Positions 11,577-31,764 of a stretch of DNA of 64,000 bases are shown piece after piece. Position numbers and translations under genes: made by a program. The first letter of the stretch is position 1, and each line of letters starts with the position of its first letter. The DNA comes from an uncultured bacterium (GTDB lineage: Bacteria; Patescibacteriota; Minisyncoccia; Phycocordibacterales; GWA1-40-21), in assembly GCA_903822075.1 (NCBI GenBank), contig CAIJNK010000008.1, positions 21,961 through 85,960 of the forward strand, read 5' to 3'. The notes below the pieces were generated by a model. It made no database searches and was not told where the DNA came from. It worked only from the letters and a program-made list of their open reading frames with translations.

Positions 11577-11641
11577 ATCCGTCGCAAGATATGTATCTTG
11601 CCTGATGAGTCCTTCACTTAGACGTTCAGGACGAAACGGAA
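11577..11641 (+). ncRNA. hammerhead ribozyme motif HHR1 (type III)
   Basis: GUC cleavage triplet; stem I hairpin gcaagata-tgt-atcttgc; CUGAUGA; stem II gtcct…aggac; GAAAC; a 5-bp stem III (tccgt/acgga) pairs with the upstream flank. Confidence 0.8.
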
Positions 11642-11666
11642 AAGATCTTTGAGAAAATGAAAATAA

Positions 11667-11717
11667 CACCTGCGCCGGATTGTTCTGAAATTATTTCAGA
11701 TTGATCCGGTGCAGGTG
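11667..11717 (+). other. long near-perfect hairpin A in HHR1-downstream leader
   Basis: Arms cacctgcgccggat / atccggtgcaggtg with one G·U pair, plus an inner tctgaaat/atttcaga stem. Confidence 0.5.
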
Positions 11718-12068
11718 TGCGCAGACACCCTAGCATGTATGTGCGGTCCCTAAACTCATCAACTTGACATCCTAGGTTGGGTTGGGTATAGGGCTACCGA
11801 CAATTCTTTCACCTCAGGAAAAGTTTTCCTGTTGCCGAAGGAGGGCATGACCAAACTTCGTTTACCGACGAAGCGCCTTCTGGAAAGAATACGGGGTGTG
11901 TAACCGACAGAAGGAGCAAATTGCCTCTTTCTAAACGGGCGGTGCCGTTCGCTTACACATTTCATGGATATAGGGGCCTTTACTCCGGTCAGGGGTCAAG
12001 GTTAGTAAAGTCCAGCTGCGCAATTTTTCAAACATTAACCATAGACAAAACTCAACGAAAGGGAATAA

Positions 12069-12365
12069 ATGAGTACCAGTTATGGTCACGCAACAGTCGC
12101 TTTCCCGGGATTTCCACCAGTCACGGGAAACACGGTAAATGACCGGGTCCTCTTTGCGAATTATCACTGGGGGTATAAAGTTGAATCCTTTCTTCCAGTG
12201 AGAACTCTAAAGTTCGCCGACGGTACGAAACGCCGCCTCTCCAAAAAAGAGCGCAGCCGCTTACTCACACTTTCTCGAAAGTGGAACAAGCACGGCCAGT
12301 GGGATTATACCCAAAATAAACGCCACCGGCCGTTTCGAACCATCGAAGAGGTGAACGACTACTAG
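12069..12365 (+). CDS. hypothetical protein (weakly supported)
   Basis: 98-aa ORF between HHR1 and HHR2; weak SD. Confidence 0.3.
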   Translation: MSTSYGHATVAFPGFPPVTGNTVNDRVLFANYHWGYKVESFLPVRTLKFADGTKRRLSKKERSRLLTLSRKWNKHGQWDYTQNKRHRPFRTIEEVNDY

Positions 12366-12527
12366 CTTCCGGGAGATCTGAGAGACAGATCGCCATGAAC
12401 CGGACGAGGTAGAGAAAACTACCTTTGGAACAGAAGCGACTACGGGCACATCACTCTACATAATGTCCCGAAAGTAAAATCCGTGAAAAAAATCACGTTA
12501 ATCATCCGAATACGCAAGGTATTCGGG

Positions 12528-12578
12528 TCTGTCTCACGATGTGTGTCGTGACTGATGAGCTCAAAAGAGCGAAACAGA
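12528..12578 (+). ncRNA. hammerhead ribozyme motif HHR2
   Basis: GUC triplet; stem I tcacga-tgtgtg-tcgtga; CUGAUGA; stem II gctc-aaaa-gagc; GAAAC; 5-bp stem III; preceded by the 8-bp hairpin ccgaatac/gtattcgg. Confidence 0.8.
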
Positions 12579-12602
12579 AAAGATCTTTGAGAATAAATAT
12601 TT

Positions 12603-12665
12603 GTCCTGCGTCTAGATTAGAAATTATTACCTGATTTTTAATCTAGACGCAGGACTCTTGCAGGG
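12603..12665 (+). other. 17-bp perfect-stem hairpin B downstream of HHR2
   Basis: gtcctgcgtctagatta … taatctagacgcaggac with a 29-nt AU-rich loop. Confidence 0.55.
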
Positions 12666-12909
12666 GTTGGACGTCTTTTGTTCACCGGTTTTCGCGAGCC
12701 GGTAACCGAATAGTATAAGGTTCGGAGCAGAGATCAGTCTCTGATAGGGGCAATGGGTCACCCTCAACCTGCACGACATAGAGATGCCGATAGTTCAAGC
12801 CTGATGTGAAGATTGTGTGGCTCCATTGTGGGCCCCAGCTTTACAAAAACGGTTTGATCATCTCTCGAGAGGGTAGCATTATGTCTGACCAACATTCTGC
12901 CCCCTCTCG

Positions 12910-12977
12910 TTTCTGTACGGGAGTATGTTCTCTCGCTGATGAGTCCTTCGCTTAGGCGTTCAGGATGAAACAGAAAA
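12910..12977 (+). ncRNA. hammerhead ribozyme motif HHR3
   Basis: GUA triplet; stem I cgggag-tatgtt-ctctcg; CUGAUGA; stem II gtcc…ggat; GAAAC; 7-bp stem III; the 12912-12986 stretch is identical to the HHR4 copy. Confidence 0.8.
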
Positions 12978-13002
12978 GATCTTTCAAACAAAGGGAGCTA
13001 AT

Positions 13003-13584
13003 ATGTTTTCAAGCAAAATCGGCAAAGGCAAGTTGTCAGTGAAAAAAGAATTCGCTGTCACCCTGCCCAAGGAGGCCAAGAAGTGGGATGACTACCGGTC
13101 GGAGATCGTGGAAGCTTTCCATACCTTGGGTGGAGTGCGGGGGATCATGGGCGTGACCGGTCTGCGTCAGACTCAGGCGTATTTACTGGCGGCGAAATTT
13201 GGATTGATTATCGAAAAAGCCGTCCGAAGGAACAGCCAAGTTTACGCCAGACGACGGATGAACAACCTCGAGCACTTAAGAAATGTTTGGGGCTGGCGGC
13301 CGGGGGATGACACAGTAACTTTGAAAAATGGGCGACACTATGCCGCTAACCGCAGTTTTATGGCTGGCAGATCGCATTTCAAAGAAGGTGAAGTCTTCGT
13401 CCAGTACTCTCTGCCTACAGGGAAAGTCCGCGAGTATTTGCTGGCTCACGGAGTTAAATGGTGGATTGCCGGAGTGGAAATGGTTCCAGTCGATGCGGTC
13501 AAAGGAGAGGGGGCCTCTCTTTCCATGAAACTGGAGACTTCGCATTTTGCCAAGGTTGATTGTCAACCCATAAAACAATCTTGA
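13003..13584 (+). CDS. hypothetical protein (island 1)
   Basis: 193 aa; SD AAAGGGAG; lies immediately downstream of HHR3; GC-rich codon usage. Confidence 0.55.
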   Translation: MFSSKIGKGKLSVKKEFAVTLPKEAKKWDDYRSEIVEAFHTLGGVRGIMGVTGLRQTQAYLLAAKFGLIIEKAVRRNSQVYARRRMNNLEHLRNVWGWRPGDDTVTLKNGRHYAANRSFMAGRSHFKEGEVFVQYSLPTGKVREYLLAHGVKWWIAGVEMVPVDAVKGEGASLSMKLETSHFAKVDCQPIKQS

Positions 13585-13611
13585 GTTCCAGATACTCAAA
13601 AATAAAATCTG

Positions 13612-13675
13612 TCTGTACGGGAGTATGTTCTCTCGCTGATGAGTCCTTCGCTTAGGCGTTCAGGATGAAACAGAA
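13612..13675 (+). ncRNA. hammerhead ribozyme motif HHR4
   Basis: Exact repeat of the HHR3 core (13612-13686 matches 12912-12986). Confidence 0.8.
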
Positions 13676-13723
13676 AAGATCTTTCGGGAAAATTAGAAAC
13701 AAAACAGCAGAAGGAGAGAAGCT

Positions 13724-14014
13724 ATGCCTAAGATTAAGTTCTCGTCGAATTTCTTGCAGGAACGCCGGATCCGTCTTGGCTTTGAACCCTGCGAGGTAGC
13801 GAGGCTGGTGGGAGTCAAGCTCGATACTTACCGACAGTGGGAATGCCGCGGGGAAATCCCCGAGAAACATCTGCCACAGTTGGCCGCCGCGCTTCAGATT
13901 CCGGAGAACGAACTGAAGGCCGAGAAGGTGGCAGTGCTGGTGGAGGCGATGTTGGGAATCCCTCGGCAGGAAACCCACGGCTTCATCAACCGAATGTTGC
14001 GCGGAAATGCGTAG
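13724..14014 (+). CDS. HTH (XRE-like) domain protein
   Basis: SD AAGGAGAG; LGFEPCEVARLVGVKLDTYRQWE helix-turn-helix; 96 aa. Confidence 0.5.
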   Translation: MPKIKFSSNFLQERRIRLGFEPCEVARLVGVKLDTYRQWECRGEIPEKHLPQLAAALQIPENELKAEKVAVLVEAMLGIPRQETHGFINRMLRGNA

Positions 14015-14026
14015 CCGGATAACACC

Positions 14027-14053
14027 CCCCGAGCAGAAATGCTCGGGGTTTTC
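14027..14053 (+). terminator. rho-independent terminator closing island 1
   Basis: Stem ccccgagc / gctcgggg followed by TTTT. Confidence 0.55.
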
Positions 14054-14090
14054 TATACGAAAAAAGTTTGGAGTGTGCTAGACTTGAAAG

Positions 14091-15659
14091 ATGAAAGCCT
14101 CGAGATTATTTTTTCAGAAAAGAAATATTTTTGTCTTGGCCTCTTTTATTGCCGGTTTTTCTTTGATGACAGTAGAACTGACTGCTTCCCGGATAATTGC
14201 CCCACTGATTGGTAGTTCTATTTTTACCTGGACCGCCGTCATTGGAGTCATACTCTTAGGCTTGGCCATCGGCAGTTACTTGGGCGGAAAAATCTCGGAT
14301 AAATATTCTGATAAACCTATTCTTGGCTTGACTTTTATTTCCGCCTCCATCACGGTCTTTATTGTGAACTACCTGGCCGCCCACACCCTCTGGCTAATAA
14401 ACAATCTTAATTCAATCGGGGTTCTGTCACTAATTTTAGTGTCCTATCTTTTTTTAATGCCGGCAATTATTCTTGGCGGAATCCAACCAATTATCTTGAA
14501 AGAATACGCCAAAGATTTTTCCCACATCGGCGCTGAATACGGCCTTTTATCCTCGTCCTGGTCTTTGGGGAGTATTTTGGGGGTATTTCTGACCGGTTTT
14601 TTTCTTATTTCTTACGTGGGTAGCGCGGAGACAATTTTTCTTATCTCCCTAACCCTGGCCATCCTGGCTTTAGTTTTCTGCATTATTGGAAAAAACAAGG
14701 ATTTAATTTATCTGTCTGCCATTATGATTTTATTTATAGTTACAGCTCTGGCTATCCAGGCCGGAATAAAAATCTCGGACAAGAATATCCTGTTTGAAAA
14801 AGAAACGGCCTATTACAAGGCCAGAGTAGTTGATTTTAATTATCCGGGTGTGGGTCAGACGAGAGGTTTTTTTTTAGACTTTGATTCTCACAGTCTGGAA
14901 ACAAAAAATACCATCCCAAATTTCTACACGGAAATATACCCAGCTTTTAGTGTCTTTAAGAATGATTTAAAAAATATTTTAGTAATCGGCGGTGGTGCCT
15001 ACACCTTGCCAAAAAATCTGGCAAGCTTTTATTCTGACTCAAGTGTAAAAGTGTGGGAGATAGATCCCGCAGTGCCAAAGCTTGCCGAAAAGTACTTTAA
15101 CCTCAATCCGCAGAAGATACACACCACGATCGGGGACGCCCGCTACCTGATAAAAAAAGACAAAGCAACCTACGACCTAATTTATGGTGATGCTTATAAC
15201 TCTTTCATCTCCGTCCCCGGCCATCTATTGACCAAAGAGTGGAATACCGAAGTCAAAAACCATCTTTCGAGTGGCGGAATATACGCGATTAATTTTATTG
15301 GCTCTCTCACGGGAGAAAAATCTATTTTATTCAAAAGCATCCTGAACACTTTTACCCAAACTTTTGGCAACTATTATATTTTTTCTTTTGGCAACAGCCC
15401 AGAAGAAATCCAAAGTATCACCATCTTGGGCGTGAATGACAATATTAAAAGAAACGGAACAGACTTGGTAGAAATACTCGGTCGGGGAATGAATCCGTTT
15501 TTAGCCCAAAAGTTAATTAGCGAACCGCAAAAATATCTCGATCCTAGAGCCATAATTTTGACCGATGATTATTACCCGACGGAGAGATTAATGTTGCCGG
15601 TAGTTACGGATTATTTTCCCAAGTTTGTCTCTTTTACAAAAAACGTCTTCGGTAATTAA
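14091..15659 (+). CDS. fused polytopic membrane domain / spermidine-synthase-like methyltransferase
   Basis: About 7 N-terminal TM helices; C-terminal VIGGGAYTL…DLIYGDAY aminopropyltransferase fold. Confidence 0.6.
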   Translation: MKASRLFFQKRNIFVLASFIAGFSLMTVELTASRIIAPLIGSSIFTWTAVIGVILLGLAIGSYLGGKISDKYSDKPILGLTFISASITVFIVNYLAAHTLWLINNLNSIGVLSLILVSYLFLMPAIILGGIQPIILKEYAKDFSHIGAEYGLLSSSWSLGSILGVFLTGFFLISYVGSAETIFLISLTLAILALVFCIIGKNKDLIYLSAIMILFIVTALAIQAGIKISDKNILFEKETAYYKARVVDFNYPGVGQTRGFFLDFDSHSLETKNTIPNFYTEIYPAFSVFKNDLKNILVIGGGAYTLPKNLASFYSDSSVKVWEIDPAVPKLAEKYFNLNPQKIHTTIGDARYLIKKDKATYDLIYGDAYNSFISVPGHLLTKEWNTEVKNHLSSGGIYAINFIGSLTGEKSILFKSILNTFTQTFGNYYIFSFGNSPEEIQSITILGVNDNIKRNGTDLVEILGRGMNPFLAQKLISEPQKYLDPRAIILTDDYYPTERLMLPVVTDYFPKFVSFTKNVFGN

Positions 15660-15678
15660 CTTCAACAACTCCAATAAT

Positions 15679-16443
15679 TTATTTGAGTTCCAACCAGACC
15701 GGACAATGATCAGAGCCGAAAATATTTTCGAGTATTTTAGCAGATTTGAGACGAGAAAGAAGGTTGGGGGAGATAAAAAAATAATCCAAACGCCAACCCA
15801 CATTCCGGTCCCGGGCAAAAGTCTTCATATCCCACCAGGAATATTTTACTTCGGTTGGGTACAGATAACGAAAAGTATCCACGTAACCGTTAGAAATAAC
15901 TTTATCCAACCAGTCCCGCTCGATTCGCAAAAAACCGGTATTCTCTTCGTTTTCTTTTGGCCGAGCCAAATCAATTTCATTGTGCGCCGTGTTCACGTCC
16001 CCGCAGAAGATCACCGAGAAACCTTTCTTTTGTAAATTCTCAATATAATTAAAAAATTCTTTGTAGAATTCCAGCTTGAAAGCCAAGCGTTCAGGCCCCC
16101 CACCACCGTTTGGAAAATAACAGGTGATAACCACCATCTTTCCGAAAAAAGCAGCCAGAAACCTTCCTTCTTGGTCTAAATCAAACTTACCCATAGCATC
16201 TTCCACCTTATCCGGCTTAATTTTGCTGTAAATAGCCACGCCGCTATAACCTTTACGCATTTTAGAATGATCAAAATAGGAAAAATAACCGGCTGGATGA
16301 CGCAGTTCTTCGGGCAAATCATCCGGGTGTGCTTTTGTTTCCTGCAAGCAGATAATGTCAGGGTCAAGCTCAAACAGCTGATTCCATTTATCTTTTTTAT
16401 ACACGGCCCGCAAACCATTTACGTTCCAGGATAAAAGTTTCAT
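15679..16443 (-). CDS. xth: exodeoxyribonuclease III
   Basis: MKLLSWNVNGLRA…QETK…GDVNTAHNEIDL…SDHCPV, the EEP nuclease signature. Confidence 0.85.
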   Translation of the reverse strand: MKLLSWNVNGLRAVYKKDKWNQLFELDPDIICLQETKAHPDDLPEELRHPAGYFSYFDHSKMRKGYSGVAIYSKIKPDKVEDAMGKFDLDQEGRFLAAFFGKMVVITCYFPNGGGGPERLAFKLEFYKEFFNYIENLQKKGFSVIFCGDVNTAHNEIDLARPKENEENTGFLRIERDWLDKVISNGYVDTFRYLYPTEVKYSWWDMKTFARDRNVGWRLDYFFISPNLLSRLKSAKILENIFGSDHCPVWLELK

Positions 16444-16465
16444 ACGTTAATAATAGCACAAATCC

Positions 16466-17467
16466 TTAGCCTTTATTATGAAACTTTTTGTGGATGTCGC
16501 GGAGGTGCTTGTCCGTCACATGGGTATAAATCTGGGTGGTCATGATGCTGGAGTGGCCAAGCATGCTTTGCACGGAGCGCAAATCTGCCCCATTACTAAG
16601 CAAATCAGTGGCAAAAACGTGCCGGATAACGTGGGGAGTGACTTTTTTGGTAATGCCAGCAATCGTCGCATAGCGTTTAACAATTCTTTCGATGGAGACA
16701 GTGGTCAGACCTTTGTTTATTTCCGCTCCGCCCCGAAGTTTGGCGGGCTTTCTTTGATATTCTCGCACTCCGCTCACGGGAACAAACAAAGCGTCAGACA
16801 TATCCTTACGTAGAGCCAAATATTGTCGGATGGCGTCTTTGGCTTCATCGGATAGAAAAACCACGCGGACTTTACCGCCTTTGCCCCGAATGGAAAATTC
16901 ATCCAGTTTTATATCCAAATCTCGGCCCAGGGAACACAGCTCGGCTACACGCAAGCCGGTAGAGAAAAGCAACTCTAAGATAGCCCGATCTCGGAAACGG
17001 CGTTCCGGATTTTCTTCCTGATTAGGCGCATCAAGCAAGCGCTGCAGCTCTTTTAGGGAAATCAGGTCAATGGAACGTTCACCCACTTTGGCTAATTCAA
17101 TATTATCGGCAGGGAGGGAAGTGACGCCTCGGCGCGCCAAGAACTTAAGAAAGACACGTAGGGCAATCAGGTAATAGTTCTGGGTTTTTCGGCTTAGGCT
17201 CCCACCGGCTTGCCCCTGCTCACCAAAGGAGTGATAAGCCTTGGCTCCAGGCCGCCGGTTCAGCCAGAGACGAAAGTCACGTACTTTTTCATTGGTAATA
17301 TCTTTGGGGTCAGTGAGCTTGGTCTGACTCAGGAATAAGCTCAGATAACGGTCGTACCGATCGACGGTTTTGAGCGCTCGCCCTTTTTCAATTTCAATAT
17401 ATTCCAGGAATCGAGTTTTGAGTTCATTCAAATTGTTACTCATGGTACTAATTATATCATGTTGCAC
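16466..17467 (-). CDS. tyrosine site-specific recombinase XerC/XerD-like
   Basis: C-terminal HVIRHVFATDLL…LGHSSIMTTQIYTHV catalytic R-H-R-Y motifs. Confidence 0.8.
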   Translation of the reverse strand: MQHDIISTMSNNLNELKTRFLEYIEIEKGRALKTVDRYDRYLSLFLSQTKLTDPKDITNEKVRDFRLWLNRRPGAKAYHSFGEQGQAGGSLSRKTQNYYLIALRVFLKFLARRGVTSLPADNIELAKVGERSIDLISLKELQRLLDAPNQEENPERRFRDRAILELLFSTGLRVAELCSLGRDLDIKLDEFSIRGKGGKVRVVFLSDEAKDAIRQYLALRKDMSDALFVPVSGVREYQRKPAKLRGGAEINKGLTTVSIERIVKRYATIAGITKKVTPHVIRHVFATDLLSNGADLRSVQSMLGHSSIMTTQIYTHVTDKHLRDIHKKFHNKG

Positions 17468-17535
17468 AATAATTTGTGTTTTTAAATTTTTAATGTGCTA
17501 TTATATAGAATATTATTAGAATAAATTAAAAATAT

Positions 17536-20028: not shown

Positions 20029-20032
20029 AGAA

Positions 20033-20299
20033 ATGAAAAATATAAAGCTTGATACAAGCAACCGCACCAAACTGGCTGATGATATGATTAAAAACTTGGG
20101 TAAAGTCTCCAAGGTAGACAAAGGAGAAGTAGTGGCAAATATGGCTATTTCCTATATCAAAATAATGAATGAGCTGAATAAGAAGCAGATTGAAGACCTA
20201 AAAAAGACCCTGGCTTTGTTTGGGGATATAAAGAAAGAGGAAAGAGAGGAAGATGAAAAAGTAAGGCTTCAGAGGATTAGAAAGGAGCTTAACAAATAG
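20033..20299 (+). CDS. hypothetical K/E-rich protein
   Basis: 88-aa ORF, 4 nt after the upstream stop. Confidence 0.35.
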   Translation: MKNIKLDTSNRTKLADDMIKNLGKVSKVDKGEVVANMAISYIKIMNELNKKQIEDLKKTLALFGDIKKEEREEDEKVRLQRIRKELNK

Positions 20300-20338
20300 C
20301 CCCTTGCATTTTACAGGAAGATGTGCTAGACTCTGCCA

Positions 20339-20599: not shown

Positions 20600-20608
20600 A
20601 ACAAAAAA

Positions 20609-20636
20609 ATCAGTCCAGCTCGGACTGATTTTTTTG
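20609..20636 (+). terminator. rho-independent terminator after rpsO
   Basis: atcagtccg-agct-cggactgat followed by TTTTTTT. Confidence 0.65.
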
Positions 20637-20687
20637 TGGTATAATTGCCACAGGTCGAATTTTAATAAAAATTAATTATATTTTTAT

Positions 20688-22085: not shown

Positions 22086-24203
22086 ATGATTAAAAGAGAG
22101 TTTTCAATGGAGCTTAACGGCAAGAAATTGACCGCGGAGTTCAACGACCTAGTAGAAAATGCACATGGTTCCTGTTTATTAAGATATGGCAACACGGTGA
22201 TTTTGGCCACCGCCGTTATAAGTAAGGATGAGATTAGTAAAGATTATTTGCCTTTGACCGTAGACTATGAAGAAAAGTTTTACGCTTCCGGTCAAATTCT
22301 GGGCAGTCGTTTTATGAAAAGGGAAGGTAAGCCGTCTGATGAGGCCATCTTAACTGGCCGCGTAGTGGACCGTACCATTCGTCCACTCTTTGATCAGTGG
22401 ATACGGAATGAGATGCAAGTGGTAATAACCATTCTTTCCATTGATGAGGATGATCCGGATGTACTTGGTGTTGTCGCCGCCTCCCTCGCTCTTGGCGTGT
22501 CCAAGATTCCTTTCCATGGCCCGGTCTCCGCGGTCAGAATTGGCAAGCACAAGACGGACGGCTTTGAGATAAACCCAACCTATACCGAAAGAGAAAATGA
22601 AAATTTTGAAATCGACTTAATTGCCTGCGGTAAAGATGGAAACATAAACATGATCGAACTTGGTGGTGATGAAGCCCAGGAAAACGTGATTATGGAGGCA
22701 ATGAAAAAGGCGTCAGAGGAAATTGAAAAAATAAATGCTTGGCAGAAAACGGTTATCGCCGAAATTGGCGTGCCAAAGATTTCTCTGCCAGCTCCAGTCA
22801 TGCCTGAAGAAATAAAAGATCTTTTCACTTCTGAAATTGAACCAAAACTAGAAAACTACGTAATGAGCGGTATCCCTGGCGGCTCAAAAATAGGGGAGAT
22901 CATGGATATCTGGATGCAGCTGGCTGCCGAAAAATATCCAGAAGTAAAATCTTCTTTTTCGGAACATTTATTCGAGGAAAAAGTGGACGCCTTGATTCAC
23001 GAGCAAGTTTTGAAAAATAACAAACGAGCTGACGGCCGAGGCATTGATGAGATTCGTCCTTTGTTTGCCCAGGCCGGTGGCATTTCCCCAATCTTGCACG
23101 GTTCCGGTATCTTCTACCGCGGCGGTACCCACATCCTGACCGCTTTGACTTTAGGCGGCCCGTCTGACGCCCAGATAATTGATGGGATGGAAGAAAGCAC
23201 GGAAGCCAAAAGATTTATGCATCATTACAACTTCCCACCGTACTCTACGGGTGAGACCGGTAAGATGGGTGGTACAAATAGAAGAATGATCGGTCACGGC
23301 GCCTTAGCCGAAAAAGCTTTACTGCCAATGATCCCAAAGAATTCCGTTTTCCCTTATACCGTTAGACTCGTCTCGGAAGCCATGTCCTCAAACGGTTCTA
23401 CTTCTATGGGTTCCGTCTGCGCCTCCACCATCGCTTTGATGGATGGTGGCGTGCCAATCAAAGCTCCAGTCGCCGGTATCGCTTCGGGTCTCATGATGGA
23501 TGATAAAGGTAATTACAAAGTACTCACTGATATTCAAGGACCAGAAGATCATTACGGTGATATGGATTTTAAAGTGGCCGGAACAAAGAACGGTGTGACC
23601 GCCATCCAAATGGACGTAAAAGTCAGCGGTGTACCGATTCCTGCTTTAGCGGAAGCTTTTGAAAAAGCAAAAATAGCCAGACTAAAAATCTTGGATGTTA
23701 TCTTGGCCGCCATTCCGGAAGTACGAAAAGATATTTCCGTCAACGCGCCAAAAATCTTAGTGTTAAAAATTCGACCAGACCAGATTGGCGGAGTGATTGG
23801 TTCTGGTGGAAAAATTATTAAAGAAATAAAAGAAAAGACCGGGGCCGATATTGATATTGAAGATGATGGCACGGTTTATTGTACCGGTAAGAATGGTTCG
23901 GCCGAAAAAGCCAAAGCGGTGATTGAAGCTTTAACCCACGAATACAAGCCAGGTGAAAGATATGAGGGTGTTGTCACCAAGATTGCGGACTTTGGTGCCT
24001 TTGTCCGCCTGCAAGGTGATACTGAAGGATTGGTTCACGTTTCCGAGATTGCGCCGTTCAGAGTTGACGTAGTTGGTTCAATCTTAAAAGTTGGTGATAA
24101 AGTACCCGTAATAGTTAAGGAGGTTGACCCGGAAAGAGGTCGTGTCAGTCTGTCTATCAAATTGGCGGATCCAGACTGGGCTAAGAGAAAGATGGGAAAA
24201 TAA
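22086..24203 (+). CDS. pnp: polynucleotide phosphorylase
   Basis: Two RNase PH domains plus C-terminal KH and S1 domains (KIADFGAFVRL…GLVHVSEI); 705 aa. Confidence 0.9.
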   Translation: MIKREFSMELNGKKLTAEFNDLVENAHGSCLLRYGNTVILATAVISKDEISKDYLPLTVDYEEKFYASGQILGSRFMKREGKPSDEAILTGRVVDRTIRPLFDQWIRNEMQVVITILSIDEDDPDVLGVVAASLALGVSKIPFHGPVSAVRIGKHKTDGFEINPTYTERENENFEIDLIACGKDGNINMIELGGDEAQENVIMEAMKKASEEIEKINAWQKTVIAEIGVPKISLPAPVMPEEIKDLFTSEIEPKLENYVMSGIPGGSKIGEIMDIWMQLAAEKYPEVKSSFSEHLFEEKVDALIHEQVLKNNKRADGRGIDEIRPLFAQAGGISPILHGSGIFYRGGTHILTALTLGGPSDAQIIDGMEESTEAKRFMHHYNFPPYSTGETGKMGGTNRRMIGHGALAEKALLPMIPKNSVFPYTVRLVSEAMSSNGSTSMGSVCASTIALMDGGVPIKAPVAGIASGLMMDDKGNYKVLTDIQGPEDHYGDMDFKVAGTKNGVTAIQMDVKVSGVPIPALAEAFEKAKIARLKILDVILAAIPEVRKDISVNAPKILVLKIRPDQIGGVIGSGGKIIKEIKEKTGADIDIEDDGTVYCTGKNGSAEKAKAVIEALTHEYKPGERYEGVVTKIADFGAFVRLQGDTEGLVHVSEIAPFRVDVVGSILKVGDKVPVIVKEVDPERGRVSLSIKLADPDWAKRKMGK

Positions 24204-24218
24204 AATAATTCAAATTAA

Positions 24219-24247
24219 AAAACCTCCGGAACTTCCTGAGGTTTTTT
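24219..24247 (+). terminator. rho-independent terminator after pnp
   Basis: aacctc…gaggtt stem plus TTTTTT. Confidence 0.6.
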
Positions 24248-24251
24248 AAAT

Positions 24252-25424: not shown

Positions 25425-26530
25425 ATAACCAAAGTTTTGAGCCCATTAAGGTGGGGATTGACCCAGTCTTCAAAGGCACCAATTCCTACCAAAATATTCC
25501 AGGCCAAAGCCCCGTAACTCCGATTGGCGGAGCTTTTGGCGTCTTAAATAACCAAAGATATAACCCTTCGCAATCGCCAATAACTTTAGGAGTAAAAGAA
25601 CCTAGCACAACTTCAGCCGTCCCGAAATCAATAGTTCGAACATTCAAAGGCGACATTGAGTCGGCTATTGAGAATAACCATTTGAACTCAATTAATATCG
25701 CCTTGGCCGAAAAGGAAAAAATGCGCGGGGAAATCAAAGCTGCAGAAGGAGAAGTGGGAGAAGAATCATCGACAGCAGCCGCCAAAAATGGCTATTCAAA
25801 AAGTAAAATAGCGGTTTTTCTCAGTGTGATCTTGATTATCGCAGGGGCGGCCGGTTTAACACTCCTTTATCTGACAAAAAAACAGGACAGCATTCCGGTG
25901 TCGCAAACCCAGGAATTACCGTCCTTAATTACAGCCGAATACAAAGATGAAATTGATACCAGCCGCATCGCCAAAGACAAATTTGCGGCAGCGTTGAGTA
26001 GTAAGCTAAATGACACTGTAATCCCAACTGACAATCTTTATAATTTATACGTGACGGCGGCTTCCGGCACAGAAAAAAGATTACTCACCTCGACCGAATT
26101 TACAACTTTATTAGGCTTTAAAATTCCCGATATTGTAAAAAGAAGCCTAGAACCTGACTTTATGGTCGGGATGTATTACGTGGACAAAAGCTTACCTTTT
26201 GTTATTTTAAAAACTTCCTATTTTGAAAATGCTTTTGCGGGAATGCTCTCCTGGGAAACGAGTCTGGAGAGAGACTTTCGGCTATTATTTGAACTGCCAG
26301 GTTATGAAAACGCCAATACTCTAGAAACTACTTTAGCTACAGCCGAGCAGGATAAATTTGAAGATACAGTGATTGTTAACAAAGACGTCCGGCAACTTCG
26401 AGATGCAACCGGAAATGTAATTCTCCTATATAGTATAGTCGACAAAGAAACGATAATCATTACCGTTAATGATATCGCTTTTAAAGAAATAATTAATCGC
26501 CTAAATAAGGAAAAGGGGATGCAGAGATAA
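25397..26530 (+). CDS. hypothetical membrane-anchored protein
   Basis: 377-aa ORF with one TM helix; its 5' end overlaps the antiporter ORF, so the start is uncertain. Confidence 0.4.
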   Translation: MPPTENKNPNNQSFEPIKVGIDPVFKGTNSYQNIPGQSPVTPIGGAFGVLNNQRYNPSQSPITLGVKEPSTTSAVPKSIVRTFKGDIESAIENNHLNSINIALAEKEKMRGEIKAAEGEVGEESSTAAAKNGYSKSKIAVFLSVILIIAGAAGLTLLYLTKKQDSIPVSQTQELPSLITAEYKDEIDTSRIAKDKFAAALSSKLNDTVIPTDNLYNLYVTAASGTEKRLLTSTEFTTLLGFKIPDIVKRSLEPDFMVGMYYVDKSLPFVILKTSYFENAFAGMLSWETSLERDFRLLFELPGYENANTLETTLATAEQDKFEDTVIVNKDVRQLRDATGNVILLYSIVDKETIIITVNDIAFKEIINRLNKEKGMQR

Positions 26531-26537
26531 ATACTGC

Positions 26538-27269
26538 TTAGCCTAATTTCTCATAGAAAGTTTGGAATATTTGCTTTTGGAACTCGGCGATCCTCTTACT
26601 CTCAATAATCATGACCGTTTCCGTATTGTAATCGATAAAAGCGACTTTATTACCATAGATTATCTCAGTAACATTATGTTCAAAAGGACCAAAATCGTTC
26701 GGCATAATTTTTGCAAAGCGATCCAGGCTTGGTCTTTTGTGCACTGCCGTCTGGGCGTTAGTAATCACTTCTCGCTGTAATTTCTTTTCGTCACGCATTT
26801 GACGATAAATCCTGGGCACATATTTATCTTTTTTTTCATTACCGTCCTTGTTTGAACTGTAACGGTAAAAGACATCCCCTTTTTTAAGACTGCGCACCAC
26901 ATCATCAAAAATTCTTTTAGTTCCATCTCTTCCTTCAAGAAATCTGATCTTCGGTTTTTTCTCACTGCTATTATAGGCGTCCTCCATGTCCGGCAGGATT
27001 TCAAAAAAATCAATTCGTAAATCGTCAAAAAGAGTTTCTAATCGATTGGGTGGTTCAGCGCCATAAACTACACTTTTTATTTTTTGCGTTTTAGTGACTA
27101 GTTTTTTTTCCATGAGGGAGGGTAGGGCCTTGTAAACCAGGGGACGATGGATTGAAGTTTTTTCGGAAATTTGGGAGATATTGGAGGTTCCCATCTCCAG
27201 CAAAGCCAGGTAAATGGCACTTTCATGCTTAGTCAGGCCTATTTTCTCCAAAATCTTGTTTTTATCCAT
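26538..27269 (-). CDS. TrmB-like transcriptional regulator (paralog 3)
   Basis: HTH LEKIGLTKHESAIYLALL; divergently oriented from island 2. Confidence 0.6.
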   Translation of the reverse strand: MDKNKILEKIGLTKHESAIYLALLEMGTSNISQISEKTSIHRPLVYKALPSLMEKKLVTKTQKIKSVVYGAEPPNRLETLFDDLRIDFFEILPDMEDAYNSSEKKPKIRFLEGRDGTKRIFDDVVRSLKKGDVFYRYSSNKDGNEKKDKYVPRIYRQMRDEKKLQREVITNAQTAVHKRPSLDRFAKIMPNDFGPFEHNVTEIIYGNKVAFIDYNTETVMIIESKRIAEFQKQIFQTFYEKLG

Positions 27270-27569
27270 ATATTTAGTTATTTTTGCTGTAATTTTAGCT
27301 TACATAGAGTATAGATAAATATCTTCAAAAAATCAAGTATTTAAGGTATTTAATATACCTTTTCTTGATTATCTATTCTTAATGTAATAATTAGTTACAT
27401 TTTTAATCAGCAAGGATTGTTGATACATAAGGGTTATTTGGGATTTAGCCAATAAACATTACATGACATTGAGCAAATTCAAGCAAGAGTTCTCCCTTTA
27501 ATATATGCTGTTCCGAGACCAAGAACGGCACTTCGAGAAGATAAACCAACCAAACAGGAGGGAACGAGG

Positions 27570-27869
27570 ATGAACAGCCCCATCATGAGTCGATACCAGG
27601 CTTGGCGTGAGGACAGAAACGCTCGAATTGCTTTCCTGATGCTAAGGAAACAGTGGGCCAGAAACTTACTAAGGGAGGCGGCACTGACCGAACCCGGACA
27701 GGAGACTGAAGCCGAGTTCCGGGGAGCAGTCTACCGGGTCTGGATTGGCCCGCGAGGCGGAGTCAGAATCCACCAAACAAGAGTACTGCCAAAACCCCTG
27801 CCGCCGGCAACGCTGCCAAAAACTGAAAATCTGCCCATGCTCGCCGCCTTTCAAAGGGTTGGGCTATAA
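27570..27869 (+). CDS. hypothetical protein (first gene of island 2)
   Basis: SD ACAGGAGGGAACGAGG; GC-rich; 99 aa. Confidence 0.45.
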   Translation: MNSPIMSRYQAWREDRNARIAFLMLRKQWARNLLREAALTEPGQETEAEFRGAVYRVWIGPRGGVRIHQTRVLPKPLPPATLPKTENLPMLAAFQRVGL

Positions 27870-27898
27870 ACAACGGCGGGGATTAGGAACCCCCGCCT

Positions 27899-27960
27899 TC
27901 CGTCGCCAAGTGAAACTTGGCCTGATGAGTCCTTCACTTAGACGTTCAGGACGAAACGGA
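27899..27960 (+). ncRNA. hammerhead ribozyme motif HHR5
   Basis: GUC; stem I gccaag-tgaaa-cttggc; CUGAUGA; stem II as in HHR1; GAAAC; 5-bp stem III; preceded by the hairpin ggcgggg/ccccgcc. Confidence 0.8.
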
Positions 27961-27999
27961 TAAAGGTCGAAAGATTATCAAAATAACTAAAAATAAATA

Positions 28000-28371
28000 A
28001 TGCTCAAAAAAGTAAAAACATTGAGAACGCCGGCGTCGCATGCGGAATACGAACGCTACCAAAAAACGCCAAAGTTCCCGGCTTGTTACATCTGCACGGC
28101 CAAGACGATAAAAACTTATGAGAAATGGAAGATGATTGAAAACGAGTTTCCTTACAACGAAATAGCCACGAAAAACGACATGATTGTCCCGATCAGGCAC
28201 ACCACTGAAAACGACTTGACGGAGGAAGAACTAAGGGAGTTTACAAAGATAAAAGAAGACATCAACGACAAATACGACATGATTCTGGAAAATACCCACA
28301 AACAAAAATCCATCCCCGGGCACTTCCACTTGCACCTCTTACAAATAAAAGAGCGGGAAATTGAAATTTAA
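28000..28371 (+). CDS. HIT-family (histidine triad)-like protein
   Basis: HFHLHLL histidine-triad motif; N-terminal CYIC. Confidence 0.5.
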   Translation: MLKKVKTLRTPASHAEYERYQKTPKFPACYICTAKTIKTYEKWKMIENEFPYNEIATKNDMIVPIRHTTENDLTEEELREFTKIKEDINDKYDMILENTHKQKSIPGHFHLHLLQIKEREIEI

Positions 28372-28400
28372 CGGCCGAGAGGCTGTTTTTTAGACCCAAA

Positions 28401-28450
28401 CTGTCTCGGAATGTGTATTCCGGCTGATGATTCCGAAAGGATGAAACAGG
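28401..28450 (+). ncRNA. hammerhead-like motif HHR6 (variant, U·U at 10.1/11.1)
   Basis: GUC; stem I cggaat-gtgt-attccg; CUGAUGA; stem II ttcc-gaaa-ggat; GAAAC; 4-bp stem III. The conserved G10.1-C11.1 pair is replaced by U/U, so it may be inactive. Confidence 0.5.
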
Positions 28451-28478
28451 TAAGTTCATTAACAACAGGAGATATAAA

Positions 28479-28700
28479 ATGTCGTGCCCAGTATGCGGAA
28501 GAGTCTTATGTGATCACTCGCCGGATGAACGTGGACAATCCTACGAGGGGATGATGGCAGATATGGATAATGATACACGCCGAATACAAGGCGGGGGTGG
28601 CTTATTGGGGCCAGCAACACCATTTCATCCAAACAGCTTCAATCCTCGTAGAGATTTACCTCCAGGGGAACGACCAGCTGACTGGGGGTTACGAGATTGA
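28479..28700 (+). CDS. small Cys-containing hypothetical protein
   Basis: SD AGGAG 9 nt upstream; MSCPVCG…C. Confidence 0.35.
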   Translation: MSCPVCGRVLCDHSPDERGQSYEGMMADMDNDTRRIQGGGGLLGPATPFHPNSFNPRRDLPPGERPADWGLRD

Positions 28701-28732
28701 CAATACACCCCGCATCTTAATTGATGCGGGTA

Positions 28733-28782
28733 CTGTCCGAGAGTGTGTACTCTCGCTGATGAGTCCAAAAGGACGAAACGGA
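28733..28782 (+). ncRNA. hammerhead ribozyme motif HHR7
   Basis: GUC; stem I cgagagt-gtgt-actctcg; CUGAUGA; stem II gtcc-aaaa-ggac; GAAAC; preceded by the hairpin cccgcatc/gatgcggg. Confidence 0.8.
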
Positions 28783-28798
28783 AAAGTTCTTTGAAAAA

Positions 28799-28859
28799 GT
28801 TGCCAAGAGATTTGAGAACTTGATTTGTGATTAATTGATTTTTCAAATCTCTTGGCAAC
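28799..28859 (+). other. 17-bp perfect-stem hairpin C in 5' leader of REC-domain gene
   Basis: gttgccaagagatttga … tcaaatctcttggcaac with a 27-nt AU-rich loop. Confidence 0.55.
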
Positions 28860-28892
28860 AATAAACAAAAAGAAAGGAAACGAGGTAGAGGT

Positions 28893-30332
28893 ATGAATAA
28901 GACAAGCGGCATTGAGATCGTGAAGGGTACGCTCCATTTTGAACATGACGGAAACGGTTTCGTCTGTCGAGAGCTCAGGGAACTGCCGGTACTGTTTGGG
29001 GAGACTCATGGCACCGATAAAGTGGATGAGGCAATCAAGCAATACTTGGCGGGTCTGCGAGGAATTTTCGAACCGAGGTACGGCTCCAGGACGGAGCGGG
29101 ACGCGGTTCCGGAAGTCGAGCGGGTGCGTTTGGGTGGTTTGGCCTTCGATGAAATCGTGGGCTCGATCGACACCAAAGATCTCTCGCTCTTCCAGAAGCT
29201 CATGTTCTGGCTGTCGGACTGGTGGTATTACAATGTGGCTCTTCGTCAGAAGTGCAACTTTGATTACAACAAATTCGACTTCTACGGAATAAGCTCGAAA
29301 ATCATCGGCGAATTCGTGCTGGCTTTGCTGCCGGAACAGATTCAGTCGGTGCTCGGGAAGATGCAGGTAGCCGGAACCGCAGTGGGATTTGGTCACTTCG
29401 CCATTTTGTTCATTGATGGTGTTCATGGCCGGTCGGGAACGGTGCGCCGGATTGTGACGGATACGCAGCTCATTGAGTTGCATGACGTCAGCGGGTACAC
29501 CTACCTCGACATCACCAAGGAAGGGAAGCCGGTCGCAAGGTCGGTGACCAGCCGCGGTGGTGAGCGAGCGTTCTTCGACGGGGTTCGACTCATGTCGCAT
29601 GACATGTTTCAGACCTGCGCGCCCAAGACGGTCGTGATCAATGGTGGATACAAGGTGAACTCCACCCAATGCACGATTATCAATGGGATTCTGTTCCCGG
29701 TGATCGAGAGCAATGATGCCGTGGCGAAAACGACCGGCGCCTTTATGGGGATGGTGGATTTCACCAATACCCAGGCCCTCGAGTCTTATGCCTTGTCGGA
29801 AGCGACGGGGACGCGACTCAAGGTTGATGGGCCAAGGGTGTTTCTGGATAAAAAAGAGCTCAAACCGATCGGGGTTTTCCAACCCAGCTCGGTGCATCTA
29901 CTGGATTCAGGGTTTGCCCTCTACGACTGGTCGGACTTTCACGAGGTGATGAACTGTCGGTTCGATTCCGTTCTGGTCATTGATGACAAGAAGGATTGGA
30001 TCGATCAATTTCGGCAAGCCTTTGGCTCCGAGATCACTCACCTCAAAGAGGTCCAGACCAGTAGCCGTGAAGAAGCGCTTGGGGCGATTGTCAACGGAAA
30101 GCCAGAAGTGGTGATCCTCGACATGCACCTGTCCGACTCCGAGGGTTTTGAAGGCCTTTGGATTGCGAACCAGTTGTTCGCCAACGCATTCGGTGGTCGA
30201 ATCGTGATTGCGAGCAGTTACCCGGATGAACAATTGAAAGCCATGACTACTCTAATCAAGGGTAAGGTCTGGGCTCCAGGCAAGAACATCGACCGTATTC
30301 GTAAACTGCTCGGCAGTACGAATTGGCGATAA
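28893..30332 (+). CDS. protein with unknown N-terminal domain and C-terminal CheY-like receiver domain
   Basis: C-terminus VLVIDDKKD…VVILDMHLSDSEG…GKVWAPGK fits a response-regulator receiver domain; SD GAGGTAGAGG. Confidence 0.6.
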   Translation: MNKTSGIEIVKGTLHFEHDGNGFVCRELRELPVLFGETHGTDKVDEAIKQYLAGLRGIFEPRYGSRTERDAVPEVERVRLGGLAFDEIVGSIDTKDLSLFQKLMFWLSDWWYYNVALRQKCNFDYNKFDFYGISSKIIGEFVLALLPEQIQSVLGKMQVAGTAVGFGHFAILFIDGVHGRSGTVRRIVTDTQLIELHDVSGYTYLDITKEGKPVARSVTSRGGERAFFDGVRLMSHDMFQTCAPKTVVINGGYKVNSTQCTIINGILFPVIESNDAVAKTTGAFMGMVDFTNTQALESYALSEATGTRLKVDGPRVFLDKKELKPIGVFQPSSVHLLDSGFALYDWSDFHEVMNCRFDSVLVIDDKKDWIDQFRQAFGSEITHLKEVQTSSREEALGAIVNGKPEVVILDMHLSDSEGFEGLWIANQLFANAFGGRIVIASSYPDEQLKAMTTLIKGKVWAPGKNIDRIRKLLGSTNWR

Positions 30333-30403
30333 CGGCGACACTTGCGCCTATAAGTTGTAAGACTTATTAAAACTTACGACCTGCATCTTGATCGATGCAG
30401 GTT

Positions 30404-30452
30404 CTGTCCGAGAGTGTGTACTCTCGCTGATGAGTCCAAAAGGACGAAACAG
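30404..30452 (+). ncRNA. hammerhead ribozyme motif HHR8
   Basis: Same core as HHR7 with a different stem III (tctg/caga versus HHR7 tctg/cgga); preceded by the hairpin cctgcatc/gatgcagg. Confidence 0.8.
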
Positions 30453-30502
30453 TAGTTCTTTGAAACAAACAAGTCCCGACAGGGACGGAAAGGTGGAAAC
30501 AG

Positions 30503-30949
30503 ATGAAGAAGGCAGCATTTCTCTCGTACAATTCGATAGCGGGTTTTAGTGCCGGATGGATCGACGGCACGACAGACTGCAAGGCTCTGATTATTCCTTG
30601 TTCGCATGGGTCATCAGCCGCCCCGAAAGTTCGCAGCGAAGCTCAGTGTCATGATGTCACGAATGAGATCACTCGACTGTGGGCCCAGCTCCGAGAACAC
30701 GTAAAGGAGTTGGATTACATCGTCGTGTATGTTGGAAGTGATGGGTCGGAAAATGCCATCACACTAGCTTCTGAGCTACCTTCCGAAAAGGTAACCTTCG
30801 TGATGTGTGACTGCCGTCTTGGTACAAAGGATGAGCTTCTCAGAAGAGCTGGCCACACAAATGCTCGGCAAATTATGTGTGAATGTCGTGGGTTAGAGAC
30901 CATGGGCCGGCTCTGCAAAAGATTCCTGGATACTGGCATGATCGGCTAA
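30503..30949 (+). CDS. hypothetical Cys-rich protein
   Basis: 148 aa; SD AAAGGTGG. Confidence 0.45.
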   Translation: MKKAAFLSYNSIAGFSAGWIDGTTDCKALIIPCSHGSSAAPKVRSEAQCHDVTNEITRLWAQLREHVKELDYIVVYVGSDGSENAITLASELPSEKVTFVMCDCRLGTKDELLRRAGHTNARQIMCECRGLETMGRLCKRFLDTGMIG

Positions 30950-30990
30950 CGGAGGCATGGTTAGAGGTTCCATTACAAAAACCTCACACT

Positions 30991-31036
30991 AGCAAAGTGT
31001 GTACTTTCGCTGATAAGTCCAGAAGTATGAAACAGA
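30991..31036 (+). ncRNA. degenerate hammerhead relic HHR9
   Basis: CUGAUAAG (G8 changed to A), stem II disrupted (gtcc-agaa-gtat), no U at 16.1; still aligned with HHR7/8 and followed by the same leader. Confidence 0.4.
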
Positions 31037-31068
31037 AAAGTTCATAAACAACAAGATATGGAGATTAA

Positions 31069-31638
31069 ATGTCTAGTATATTGATGAAGTATGAATCCAG
31101 TTTCCGTGACGGTGAGAGCCTTGAGAATTTCGAGCTCTGTCTTCTACCTGGTGAAGTATGGCTTACCACTGAGCCGGAAATGATGACTTGGCTTGAAGCA
31201 ATAGAGATTGCTGGAGCTAAATCAAACTTACGCCTGCCACATTACGCTGATCTAATAAGGGCGGTAGAAAGTTTGTCGAAAGATAGCCGGCTTGGCGAGC
31301 AGTTCTCTCCACTTGAAGATGGAGAGTTTTGGACAATAGGTTCGGAGGGATATGAAGCAAATCAGCCATTCGCCTGTTGTGTTCAAGCCACACACAGTAG
31401 CTATGACTCACACAGCCTAAAGACTTGCCTAAAATGGGTAAGGTTCATCAAACGAGGTAAGGCAGAAACATCATTTGAAATCCAAAAGAAAAAGGAGTTG
31501 AGAGAAAGATGGATGCATGAGGTTAATCTTCACCGGAAAGTATCCGATATTCTTGATTTAGATCAAGTTGAAATTGGTACCATACATGGACAATTTCAAC
31601 TTGAATCAAAATCGCAAATTCGCAAAAGGCTGCAGTAA
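31069..31638 (+). CDS. hypothetical protein
   Basis: 189 aa; SD GGAG upstream of the ATG. Confidence 0.45.
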   Translation: MSSILMKYESSFRDGESLENFELCLLPGEVWLTTEPEMMTWLEAIEIAGAKSNLRLPHYADLIRAVESLSKDSRLGEQFSPLEDGEFWTIGSEGYEANQPFACCVQATHSSYDSHSLKTCLKWVRFIKRGKAETSFEIQKKKELRERWMHEVNLHRKVSDILDLDQVEIGTIHGQFQLESKSQIRKRLQ

Positions 31639-31711
31639 TGTCAATGCGGCGCAGAGAAAGATAAAAAGTGGAGACAACCACCTATCAAAAACCCTGGGGA
31701 ATTTACCCAGG

Positions 31712-31764
31712 TTCTGTCCGGGAGTGTGTACTCTCGCTGATGAGTCCAAAAGGACGAAACGGAA
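31712..31764 (+). ncRNA. hammerhead ribozyme motif HHR10
   Basis: GUC; stem I cgggagt-gtgt-actctcg with a G·U pair; CUGAUGA; gtcc-aaaa-ggac; GAAAC; 6-bp stem III; preceded by the hairpin cctggg/cccagg. Confidence 0.8.

Follow-up and report, generated by a model that had tools for sequence, protein, structure and literature searches.

Why should a bacterial chromosome carry a self-cleaving RNA motif in one gap after another between its genes? The question is raised by a 64,000-nucleotide stretch of contig CAIJNK010000008.1 (the window, herein always the whole stretch), in which a first-pass annotation had read ten hammerhead ribozymes on the + strand, one at each cistron boundary of two gene islands, and had proposed that they cut a polycistronic transcript into single units. 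We find that nine of the ten sites (H1 to H8 and H10, Table 1) have the full catalytic core and helices of a type III hammerhead, while the tenth (H9) is a relic, and from the sequence and comparative evidence described below we consider it probable that the nine split polycistronic RNA into separately stable units by co-transcriptional cleavage.

Nine of the ten sites have the core CUGAUGA...GAAA together with loop-closed stems I (6-7 bp) and II and a stem III of 4-7 bp that is open. Stem II has 4 bp or is made longer by a 12-nt insertion, as in H1 and H5, and the cleavage triplet is GUC in seven copies and GUA in two. H9 reads CUGAUAA, in which G8 has become A, and so departs from the catalytic core; it folds without the hammerhead shape and is predicted to be a decayed, inactive copy. 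The pattern CTGATGA-N(4-30)-GAAA occurs 12 times in the window versus 1.4 expected, a number that none of 100 shuffled sequences reached, and nine of the 12 occurrences are the reported sites.

At gathering thresholds (48.5 bits for RF00008, Hammerhead_3), a search with Rfam calls no hammerhead in the window. In E-value mode Hammerhead_3, the best-scoring member of its clan, matches eight of the ten sites with 23.8-45.3 bits and E-values of 3.5e-7 to 0.43 (H1 39.6 bits, E 1.5e-5; H2 23.8; H4 30.8; H5 37.1; H6 32; H7 41.6; H8 and H10 45.3 each) and H9 goes unreported. A covariance model made from the nine window copies (R1) scores these copies at 59-79 bits, with E-values of 1e-13 to 1e-18 (H1 69, H2 71.4, H3 67, H4 66.1, H5 59.1, H6 69.5, H7 77.3, H8 76.5 and H10 79.4), and the relic at 28.4. 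The first-pass annotation had named hits above the Rfam threshold as its own check, and in formal terms the finding fails it. That check was too strict because the sub-threshold hits are significant and because both the independent model and the covariation across 57 copies confirm the sites; the gathering threshold marks where curators cut off matches rather than any biochemical property, and the sub-threshold scores reflect a divergent subfamily rather than false positives. Known members of RF00008, from viroids, satellite RNAs, plants and some bacteria, share with the window copies the core, the junction, the open stem III and the closed loops, but the window copies differ from them in score (24-45 bits versus 48.5) and in having a distinct conserved pair of loops, UGUGU-R in loop I and AAAA in loop II. 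Because all of the scores fall under 48.5 bits, standard annotation based on Rfam would miss every copy.

Selection on structure, which had been proposed from the stems of the window copies, is borne out both there and in a family set of 57 copies from about 19 genomes. Among the nine window copies 95.8% of pair cells are paired, versus 35-51% with slid partners, and six of the seven stem I pairs are altered on both sides; over the 57 copies the figures are 97.7% versus 31-45%, both sides change in 13 of 16 pairs, and the covariation score is reached by none of 500 shuffles. C3, G5, A6, U7, G8, A9, G12, A13, A14, A15.1 and U16.1 are invariant in all 57, U4 is kept in 54, and H17 is C in 47, U in six, A in four and never G; the AUC, UUC and GCU triplets in the family are accompanied by compensating changes at 15.2. 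The final A of loop II is likewise present in 57 of 57 copies, and although no pairing or covariation between the two loops is demonstrable over this set, their conservation suggests a tertiary contact. In thermodynamic folds stems I and II form in all nine window copies, and the complete three-way junction is the minimum free energy (MFE) fold for H1, H3, H5 and H10. We therefore regard the nine sites as bona fide type III hammerhead ribozymes, predicted to be intact or nearly so. That they are chance motifs, or hammerhead-like hairpin terminators without catalysis, would be in keeping with Rfam matches that never reach the gathering score and with upstream hairpins that look like terminators on the opposite strand; this idea is effectively refuted by the excess of occurrences, the R1 E-values and the covarying helices around an invariant core, and we give it next to no credence.

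Every copy is intergenic and on the coding strand, and the order of elements around the copies is the stop codon of one gene, a stable hairpin, the hammerhead, an A-rich leader, often a long hairpin, a Shine-Dalgarno (SD) sequence and the start codon of the next gene. Where the upstream open reading frame (ORF) is clear, the first hairpin begins between 17 nt before and 54 nt after its stop codon, and it is separated from stem III by 1-2 nt in eight of nine copies and by 12 nt at H4. Over 56 copies the 47 nt upstream of the ribozyme have a median MFE of -13.9 kcal/mol, versus -6.2 for random windows from the same loci. These hairpins do not read as intrinsic terminators in a + strand scan, where what comes next is the 5' strand of stem III; the only U-run among them follows GGCCGAGAGGCU in the hairpin at 28355-28397. 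The scan is convincing at 14027-14048 only, its other match (12904-12923) spanning stem III and stem I of H3. No promoter fits between hairpin and ribozyme, and transcription is therefore expected to reach the ribozyme by running on from the upstream gene.

On the downstream side, start codons lie 26-47 nt after H3, H4, H5, H6, H8 and H10, in most cases with an evident SD, and 108 nt after H7. The earlier statement that each motif lies directly 5' of the next ribosome-binding site (RBS) thus stands for H3, H4, H6, H8 and H10 and more loosely for H7, but not for H5 (37 nt from its start codon, with no SD seen by eye), for H1, which is 426 nt upstream of the next conserved ORF, or for H2, which precedes a non-coding RNA. 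Nor is there one ribozyme for every cistron boundary, since the R1 search found none at the two boundaries after P384 (32950-33043 and 33444-33543). Two of the bounded units are not simple cistrons. Near-perfect hairpins of 20-25 bp follow ribozyme and leader in units A and B and in the 5' untranslated region (UTR) of P479, the last of these (28799-28859, + strand) having about 20 bp after H7 and its leader; they could be RNase III substrates or 5' stabilisers. At the P479 position a related genome locus, L006, apparently has a hairpin of other sequence, as judged by eye and without folding.

The mechanism that we favor would begin with transcription of an island as one long RNA, in which each hammerhead would fold on emerging and cut after H17. 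The upstream product would end in its 3' hairpin plus 7-8 nt and a 2',3'-cyclic phosphate, and the hairpin would hinder 3' exonucleases such as the polynucleotide phosphorylase (PNPase) encoded in the window. The downstream product would start with a 5'-OH on the compact ribozyme fold, and in bacterial RNA decay such an end is a poor substrate for the 5'-monophosphate-dependent pathway. The outcome would be a set of separate RNAs, comprising mRNAs, among them one whose UTRs are long and structured, and one or more structured non-coding RNAs, each with a context-free 5' UTR and with its stability and translation uncoupled from those of its neighbors. What the sequences show directly is the motifs and their covariation, their conservation in other genomes, the make-up of the module and its same-strand placement between genes; that the genes are co-transcribed, that the RNA is cut in vivo, that the new ends are protected and that the host benefits we infer, and the proposal that the transcript would be cut into units with 5'-OH and 2',3'-cyclic phosphate ends is well supported by sequence and comparison. 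In favor of processing, island 1 is enclosed by a strong promoter-like site on one side and by the one convincing terminator of the + strand on the other, the promoter scan turned up no strong internal promoters, and hammerheads flank unit A in four genomes and unit B in three.

Table 1. Ribozymes and associated features, by position in the window.
Feature	Position	Strand	Description
H1	11576-11642	+	Type III hammerhead; GUC; predicted cleavage 3' of 11583
H2	12526-12580	+	Type III hammerhead; GUC; predicted cleavage 3' of 12533; between units A and B
H3	12910-12976	+	Type III hammerhead; GUA; predicted cleavage 3' of 12917; 7-bp stem III
H4	13610-13676	+	Type III hammerhead; GUA; predicted cleavage 3' of 13617
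H5	27897-27962	+	Type III hammerhead; GUC; predicted cleavage 3' of 27904
H6	28398-28452	+	Hammerhead with U-U at 10.1-11.1; GUC; predicted cleavage 3' of 28405
H7	28730-28784	+	Canonical type III hammerhead; GUC; predicted cleavage 3' of 28737; 5' of P479
H8	30401-30455	+	Canonical type III hammerhead; GUC; predicted cleavage 3' of 30408
H9	30986-31038	+	Hammerhead relic (site 30991 of the first-pass annotation); CUGAUAA, broken stem II, no GUH, no stem III
H10	31711-31765	+	Canonical type III hammerhead; GUC; predicted cleavage 3' of 31718; 5' of glycosyltransferase P384
Stable hairpin adjoining H1	11553-11575	+	Folding; predicted 3' end of upstream product
Hairpins before other ribozymes	12506-12526, 12866-12909, 13581-13599 (weak), 27875-27897, 28355-28397, 28709-28730, 30381-30400, 31693-31711	+	Folding
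Leader AAAAG-N-UCUUU	11640-11650, 12578-12588, 12974-12984, 13674-13684, 28782-28792, 30454-30461	+	Sequence reading
Leader variant AAAGGUCGAA (DNA form AAAGGTCGAA)	27962-27971, 31763-31774	+	Sequence reading
Degenerate leader forms	28452-28460, 31036-31046	+	Sequence reading
Near-perfect 20-25 bp hairpins after ribozyme and leader	11666-11718, 12603-12655, 28799-28859	+	Unit A, unit B, P479 5' UTR; folding
Promoter-like site TTGACA-16-TATACT	11108-11135	+	11 of 12 consensus matches; could drive island 1; consensus match only
Unit A	11643-12527	+	Bounded by H1 and H2; alignments, tblastn
Unit B	12581-12909	+	Bounded by H2 and H3; structured non-coding RNA of ~330 nt; 24-bp hairpin 12603-12655
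Unit C (P193)	13003-13584	+	ORF; H4 separates P193 and P96
Unit D (P96)	13724-14014	+	Helix-turn-helix (HTH) protein; HTH/repressor-like PHROG and NCBIfam matches
Intrinsic-terminator-like hairpin and U-run	14027-14048	+	End of island 1; terminator scan
Island 2 (P99, P123, P73, P479, P148, P189, P384)	27570-32950	+	H5 to H10 at boundaries
TrmB-family regulator	26538-27269	-	Pfam TrmB; divergent from island 2
TrmB-family paralog	9744-10496	+	Precedes island 1

Unit A of island 1 has a 426-nt 5' UTR with conserved blocks, opening with a hairpin of ~25 bp (11666-11718), then a conserved, K/R-rich ORF of 98 aa (12069-12365) without protein family matches, and a 3' UTR of ~160 nt (12366-12527) that is conserved better than the ORF. 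The ORF has tblastn matches with in-frame indels in L006 and in two further loci, L030 (labelled Saccharibacteria) and L035, and the unit is hammerhead-flanked in all four genomes. In unit B none of the reading frames contains a long ORF; applied to three genomes, RNAalifold yields a multi-helix fold with 100 pairs, 28 of them kept via changes on both sides, and hammerheads flank the unit in the window, in L006 (2659-3013) and in L025 (3117-3474, minus strand). Other accounts of these units were rejected. Neither unit matches a known RNA family in Rfam, which in E-value mode gave only spurious miRNA-like matches to the long hairpins; an RNase P-like reading of the strings AAAGUCC and ACAGAA in unit A is at odds with the conserved ORF between them and with a P4 pairing that fails by eye; and stop-codon recoding of the ORF-free stretches falls because unit A holds a real 98-aa ORF and unit B is a structured RNA, no suppressor being found among the four window tRNAs, which are ordinary (Gly, Pro, Gly and Arg). 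In L035 unit A lies directly upstream of a P479 ortholog, which makes the two window islands components of a single recurring gene set; in L006, too, they are neighbors.

Unit B also invites comparison with retrozymes and viroid-like circular RNAs, in which tandem type III hammerheads flank a non-coding unit (PMC4918200). In the window directly oriented type III hammerheads likewise bound units of 0.3-1 kb, and unit B, being non-coding, structured and ~330 nt long, has the size of a retrozyme or viroid. The stem III strands of flanking ribozymes can cross-pair (UCUGU or UCCGU with ACAGA or ACGGA), and with stem III nearly shared an excised unit might re-form a hammerhead and be closed, through self-ligation or by RtcB, into an exonuclease-proof circle, a possibility that was raised by Perreault et al. 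(PMC3088659). We nevertheless find this quite unlikely. Perreault et al. sought circular or spliced products in their own arrays and found none (PMC3088659), common ancestry explains the shared stem III equally well, and a 3' hairpin at the cut together with an RBS-bearing leader suits linear mRNAs better. Moreover, most of the window units are protein-coding with an RBS and reside in a bacterial host, no ligase gene was identified in the part of the window ORFs that was scanned, and retrozyme features such as long terminal repeats, primer-binding sites and target-site duplications were not noticed in the window, although no dedicated search for them was made.

The leader follows stem III directly and in its extended form reads AAAAG-N-UCUUU(G/A)A, and its variant AAAGGUCGAA stands 5' of the HIT-like (histidine triad-like) gene and of the glycosyltransferase gene in both the window and L006. 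It occurs in just seven of 98 copies among the metagenome matches listed, which were picked on loop I, core and loop II, and since this sample is independent of the leader, we take the leader to be a clade-specific addition and not part of the ribozyme. No convincing partner for it was found by eye in loop II, the 3' strand of stem III, the upstream A-tract or the 16S 3' end. Such a conserved element without an assigned role would suit conditional switches, in which cleavage would not be constitutive but regulated by alternative pairing with the upstream hairpin, a factor bound to the leader, or Mg2+ or polyamine levels, and would adjust relative expression to conditions. An upstream hairpin strand at H3, CCCUCUCG, resembles by eye the 3' strand of stem I and would permit an alternative fold, TrmB regulators are linked to the islands, and the non-canonical 10.1-11.1 pairs of H3, H4 and H6 could grade activity. 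Regulated cleavage of this kind is nevertheless improbable, as no covariation backs any alternative structure, the leader covaries with no segment of the ribozyme, and no stem contains an inserted aptamer-like domain.

The arrays extend well beyond the window. L006, in which the ortholog of P479 is 70% identical, has 11 hammerheads within 10 kb by R1, all on the gene strand and intergenic. Among 35 genome loci fetched by a core-plus-leader pattern, 17 contain R1 copies (up to five in 8 kb, and four in a 3-kb contig); the positive loci are mostly metagenome-assembled genomes (MAGs) of Paceibacterota, Taylorbacteria, Saccharibacteria, Nomurabacteria and Vogelbacteria, and the MAGs with clusters of 2-5 copies include Paceibacterota, Taylorbacteria and Saccharibacteria. 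Metagenomes from marine, sediment and freshwater sources (loci L047-L126) are rich in type III hammerheads that share the UGUGU and AAAA loops, and at least 15 of the 80 loci listed carry 2-4 copies. Among the metagenome matches listed, the upstream hairpin is again common (median -12.6, often of the GGGGGCUUCGGCCCCC type) and an SD and ATG often follow within ~25 nt of the hammerhead. Contig ends at metagenome hammerheads were considered as evidence of cleavage and rejected, as repeats break assemblies.

The order of orthologs differs between the window and L006, and several units are present in one genome only. The nearest relatives of H1 are the L006 copies at 836, its positional ortholog, and at 1810, both 87% identical; H5 and the L006 copy at 8255 are 90% identical and each follows the P99 ortholog, and H7 is 86% identical to its positional ortholog at 9806. 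Within a genome identity is 99% for H3 and H4, 93-96% for H7, H8 and H10, and 96% for the L006 copies at 836 and 1810, which indicates that copies were duplicated or underwent gene conversion recently. Whereas the ribozyme body mostly moves with the upstream gene and hairpin, the leader variant moves with the downstream gene, which puts the recombination junctions at the ribozyme, and the ribozyme repeats may serve as junctions for shuffling and homogenising expression units.

These dynamics would also be expected of a selfish or neutral repeat, in which a hairpin-hammerhead module spreads, is homogenised by recombination and cleaves without benefit to the host, its placement reflecting tolerated insertions. 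Unit order is shuffled among relatives, some close relatives are entirely without the elements, one copy (H9) is decaying, and ribozymes are common in selfish elements according to Perreault et al. (PMC3088659). A repeat of this kind is, in our view, an unlikely explanation. Compensatory changes have preserved the core and all three helices in deep lineages of the Patescibacteria, placement is strictly on the same strand and precisely between hairpin and leader or RBS, ribozymes stand on both sides of units A and B in three to four genomes each, and the surroundings of the copies showed neither a transposase nor target-site duplications or terminal repeats. The decay of H9 may equally count for the processing of polycistronic RNA, as the loss of a copy where it is not maintained.

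Several observations nonetheless weigh against processing as the role of the array. Within-genome copies are nearly identical and often closer to one another than to their positional orthologs, as a selfish repeat would have it. Neither a hammerhead nor any other known ribozyme lies near the P479 ortholog in L004, L008 or L010, although the P479 of L004 is as close as that of L006 (those of L008 and L010 are more distant), and the arrangement is therefore dynamic and dispensable; another ribozyme class in place of the hammerheads was sought in L004 and L008 and none was found even at E <= 1. The best Rfam score is 45.3 bits, leaving every site under the 48.5-bit gathering threshold. Stem III, with only 4-7 bp, is not the MFE pairing in five copies, so that folding of each motif, which had been suggested as a check, returned the full junction for the other four. 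The 10.1-11.1 pair is G-C in H1, H2, H5, H7, H8 and H10 but G-U in H3 and H4 and U-U in H6 (CUGAUGA-UUCC...GGAU-GAAA), and activity may be reduced in these three; the pair is G-C in 53 of the 57 family copies and H6 is among only two without a standard pair there. Perreault et al. discarded matches mispaired at 10.1-11.1 unless activity had been demonstrated (PMC3088659). Finally, no consensus promoter was found upstream of island 2, where co-transcription is assumed.

The first-pass annotation knew of no described arrangement of this sort, and here it was mistaken, as the arrangement is not new in kind. As reported by Perreault et al. (2011, PLoS Comput Biol; PMC3088659), hammerheads in bacteria and prophages occur in clusters around single genes or short gene blocks, and their proposed role is to cut long transcripts down to single-gene mRNAs. 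Cleavage was shown for three arrays, those of C. scindens, A. caulinodans and A. tumefaciens cutting themselves in vitro and A. tumefaciens constructs also doing so in vivo. Reviews from 2017 and 2019 (PMC6155905, PMC6765202) restate the clusters and call the bacterial role open. The window resembles those arrays in having several same-strand hammerheads within a few kb, between genes and among many small unassigned ORFs, and in the order of hairpin, hammerhead and RBS, which is also common among the metagenome matches listed. The arrays tested in vitro were triple and ~2 kb long, and bacterial hammerheads are described as often lying near integrases and prophages, whereas the window has 9 + 1 copies in two islands on a Patescibacteria chromosome without phage hallmarks, with a phylum-conserved P479, a structured non-coding RNA unit and a clade-specific leader. 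A full-text literature search, which does not cover all journals, found nothing relevant linking hammerheads to Patescibacteria or the candidate phyla radiation (CPR), and a search on TM7/Saccharibacteria gave no hammerhead link among its top matches. The features that seem not to have been reported before are the host phylum, the density (11 copies in 10 kb in L006 and 9 + 1 in the window), the conserved non-prophage context, the bounded non-coding RNA, the leader and the extra elements of the module.

An engineered counterpart is the RiboJ type of insulator, reportedly described by Lou and coworkers in Nature Biotechnology in 2012, which is said to place a hammerhead and a hairpin before the RBS. 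In both cases a hammerhead would strip the upstream context and leave a defined 5' UTR, and three window units have a long hairpin after the ribozyme. RiboJ is engineered, whereas the window arrangement is natural, recurs along an operon and adds a further hairpin upstream of the ribozyme.

The genomic setting is that of a bacterial chromosome. The window encodes PNPase (22086-24203), a CCA-adding enzyme, UvrD, a ComM-like Mg-chelatase, DnaA, an XerC/D-type recombinase and two TrmB-family regulators, and the neighbors of the islands are PNPase, S15 (via L006 orthology), the CCA-adding enzyme and DnaA. Phage origin was rejected on these housekeeping genes and on zero megablast matches to 50,697 phage records, and a defence island or prophage cargo was rejected too, as the matches from PADLOC, PHROGs and NCBIfam were confined to weak ones to HTH or receiver domains. 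No match to PHROG structural or replication families or to defence systems marks a prophage or integrase neighborhood, and the tyrosine recombinase (16466-17467) is syntenic with housekeeping genes in L006. P479 has 75 homologs, and because those with names come from Parcubacteria, Patescibacteria, Gracilibacteria and Moraniibacteria, the organism is a member of the Patescibacteria (CPR).

P479 has a C-terminal receiver-like domain and P384 is a glycosyltransferase; with P99 and P123 they have orthologs in L006. The ribozyme-bounded units other than A and B encode small proteins without assigned function, the HTH protein, P479 and the glycosyltransferase. P123 (28000-28371, + strand) contains HFHLHLL and looks HIT-like by eye, has no Pfam family matches, and has no visible SD at its start codon in the window or in L006. 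The two TrmB paralogs, with 36% identity in their aligned part according to a comparison made via L006, each lie just upstream of a hammerhead island, and the same TrmB gene adjoins the L006 array (83% identity), where it separates the two halves.

A bolder reading, which we hold tentatively and would not expect to prove right in full, is that in Patescibacteria the hammerhead arrays form a host-maintained RNA-maturation system for a conserved, TrmB-linked gene set, in which a dedicated module would release non-coding RNA, UTR-rich mRNAs and cistrons while its copies shuffle cassettes. If true, these would be the first bacterial hammerheads with a defined non-phage cellular role. Most known bacterial examples lie in poorly understood prophage regions, and the present array offers a tractable entry to the question of role: its ribozymes flank phylum-conserved genes and RNAs, positional orthologs can be compared between genomes, and the module of 3' hairpin, leader and RBS gives concrete predictions on RNA ends and stability. 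Patescibacteria genomes are very small and some Saccharibacteria grow in co-culture, which makes a direct test of operon processing possible.

A few minor observations concern the window and its relatives. A model match at 5269-5317 on the minus strand (23.8 bits), between two tRNA genes, was rejected as a further hammerhead; it keeps GAUGA...GAAAC, and a stem III is plausible, but stem I and C3 are missing, and we take it for a relic or for a match by chance. Another weak match (18.9 bits) lies at 8504-8553 (+) within the CCA-enzyme ORF. Immediately 5' of the P479 ortholog in L008, at 9820-9956 (+), 137 nt match the 374-position transfer-messenger RNA (tmRNA) model above its gathering score and may represent a reduced or permuted tmRNA. 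The CPR contig L004 has adjacent bAvd and reverse-transcriptase genes at 9582-11405 (+), the signature of a diversity-generating retroelement. In the window itself, a 522-aa ORF at 14091-15659 (+) combines a weak N-terminal match to MFS transporters with a C-terminal spermidine/spermine synthase domain, an unusual fusion.

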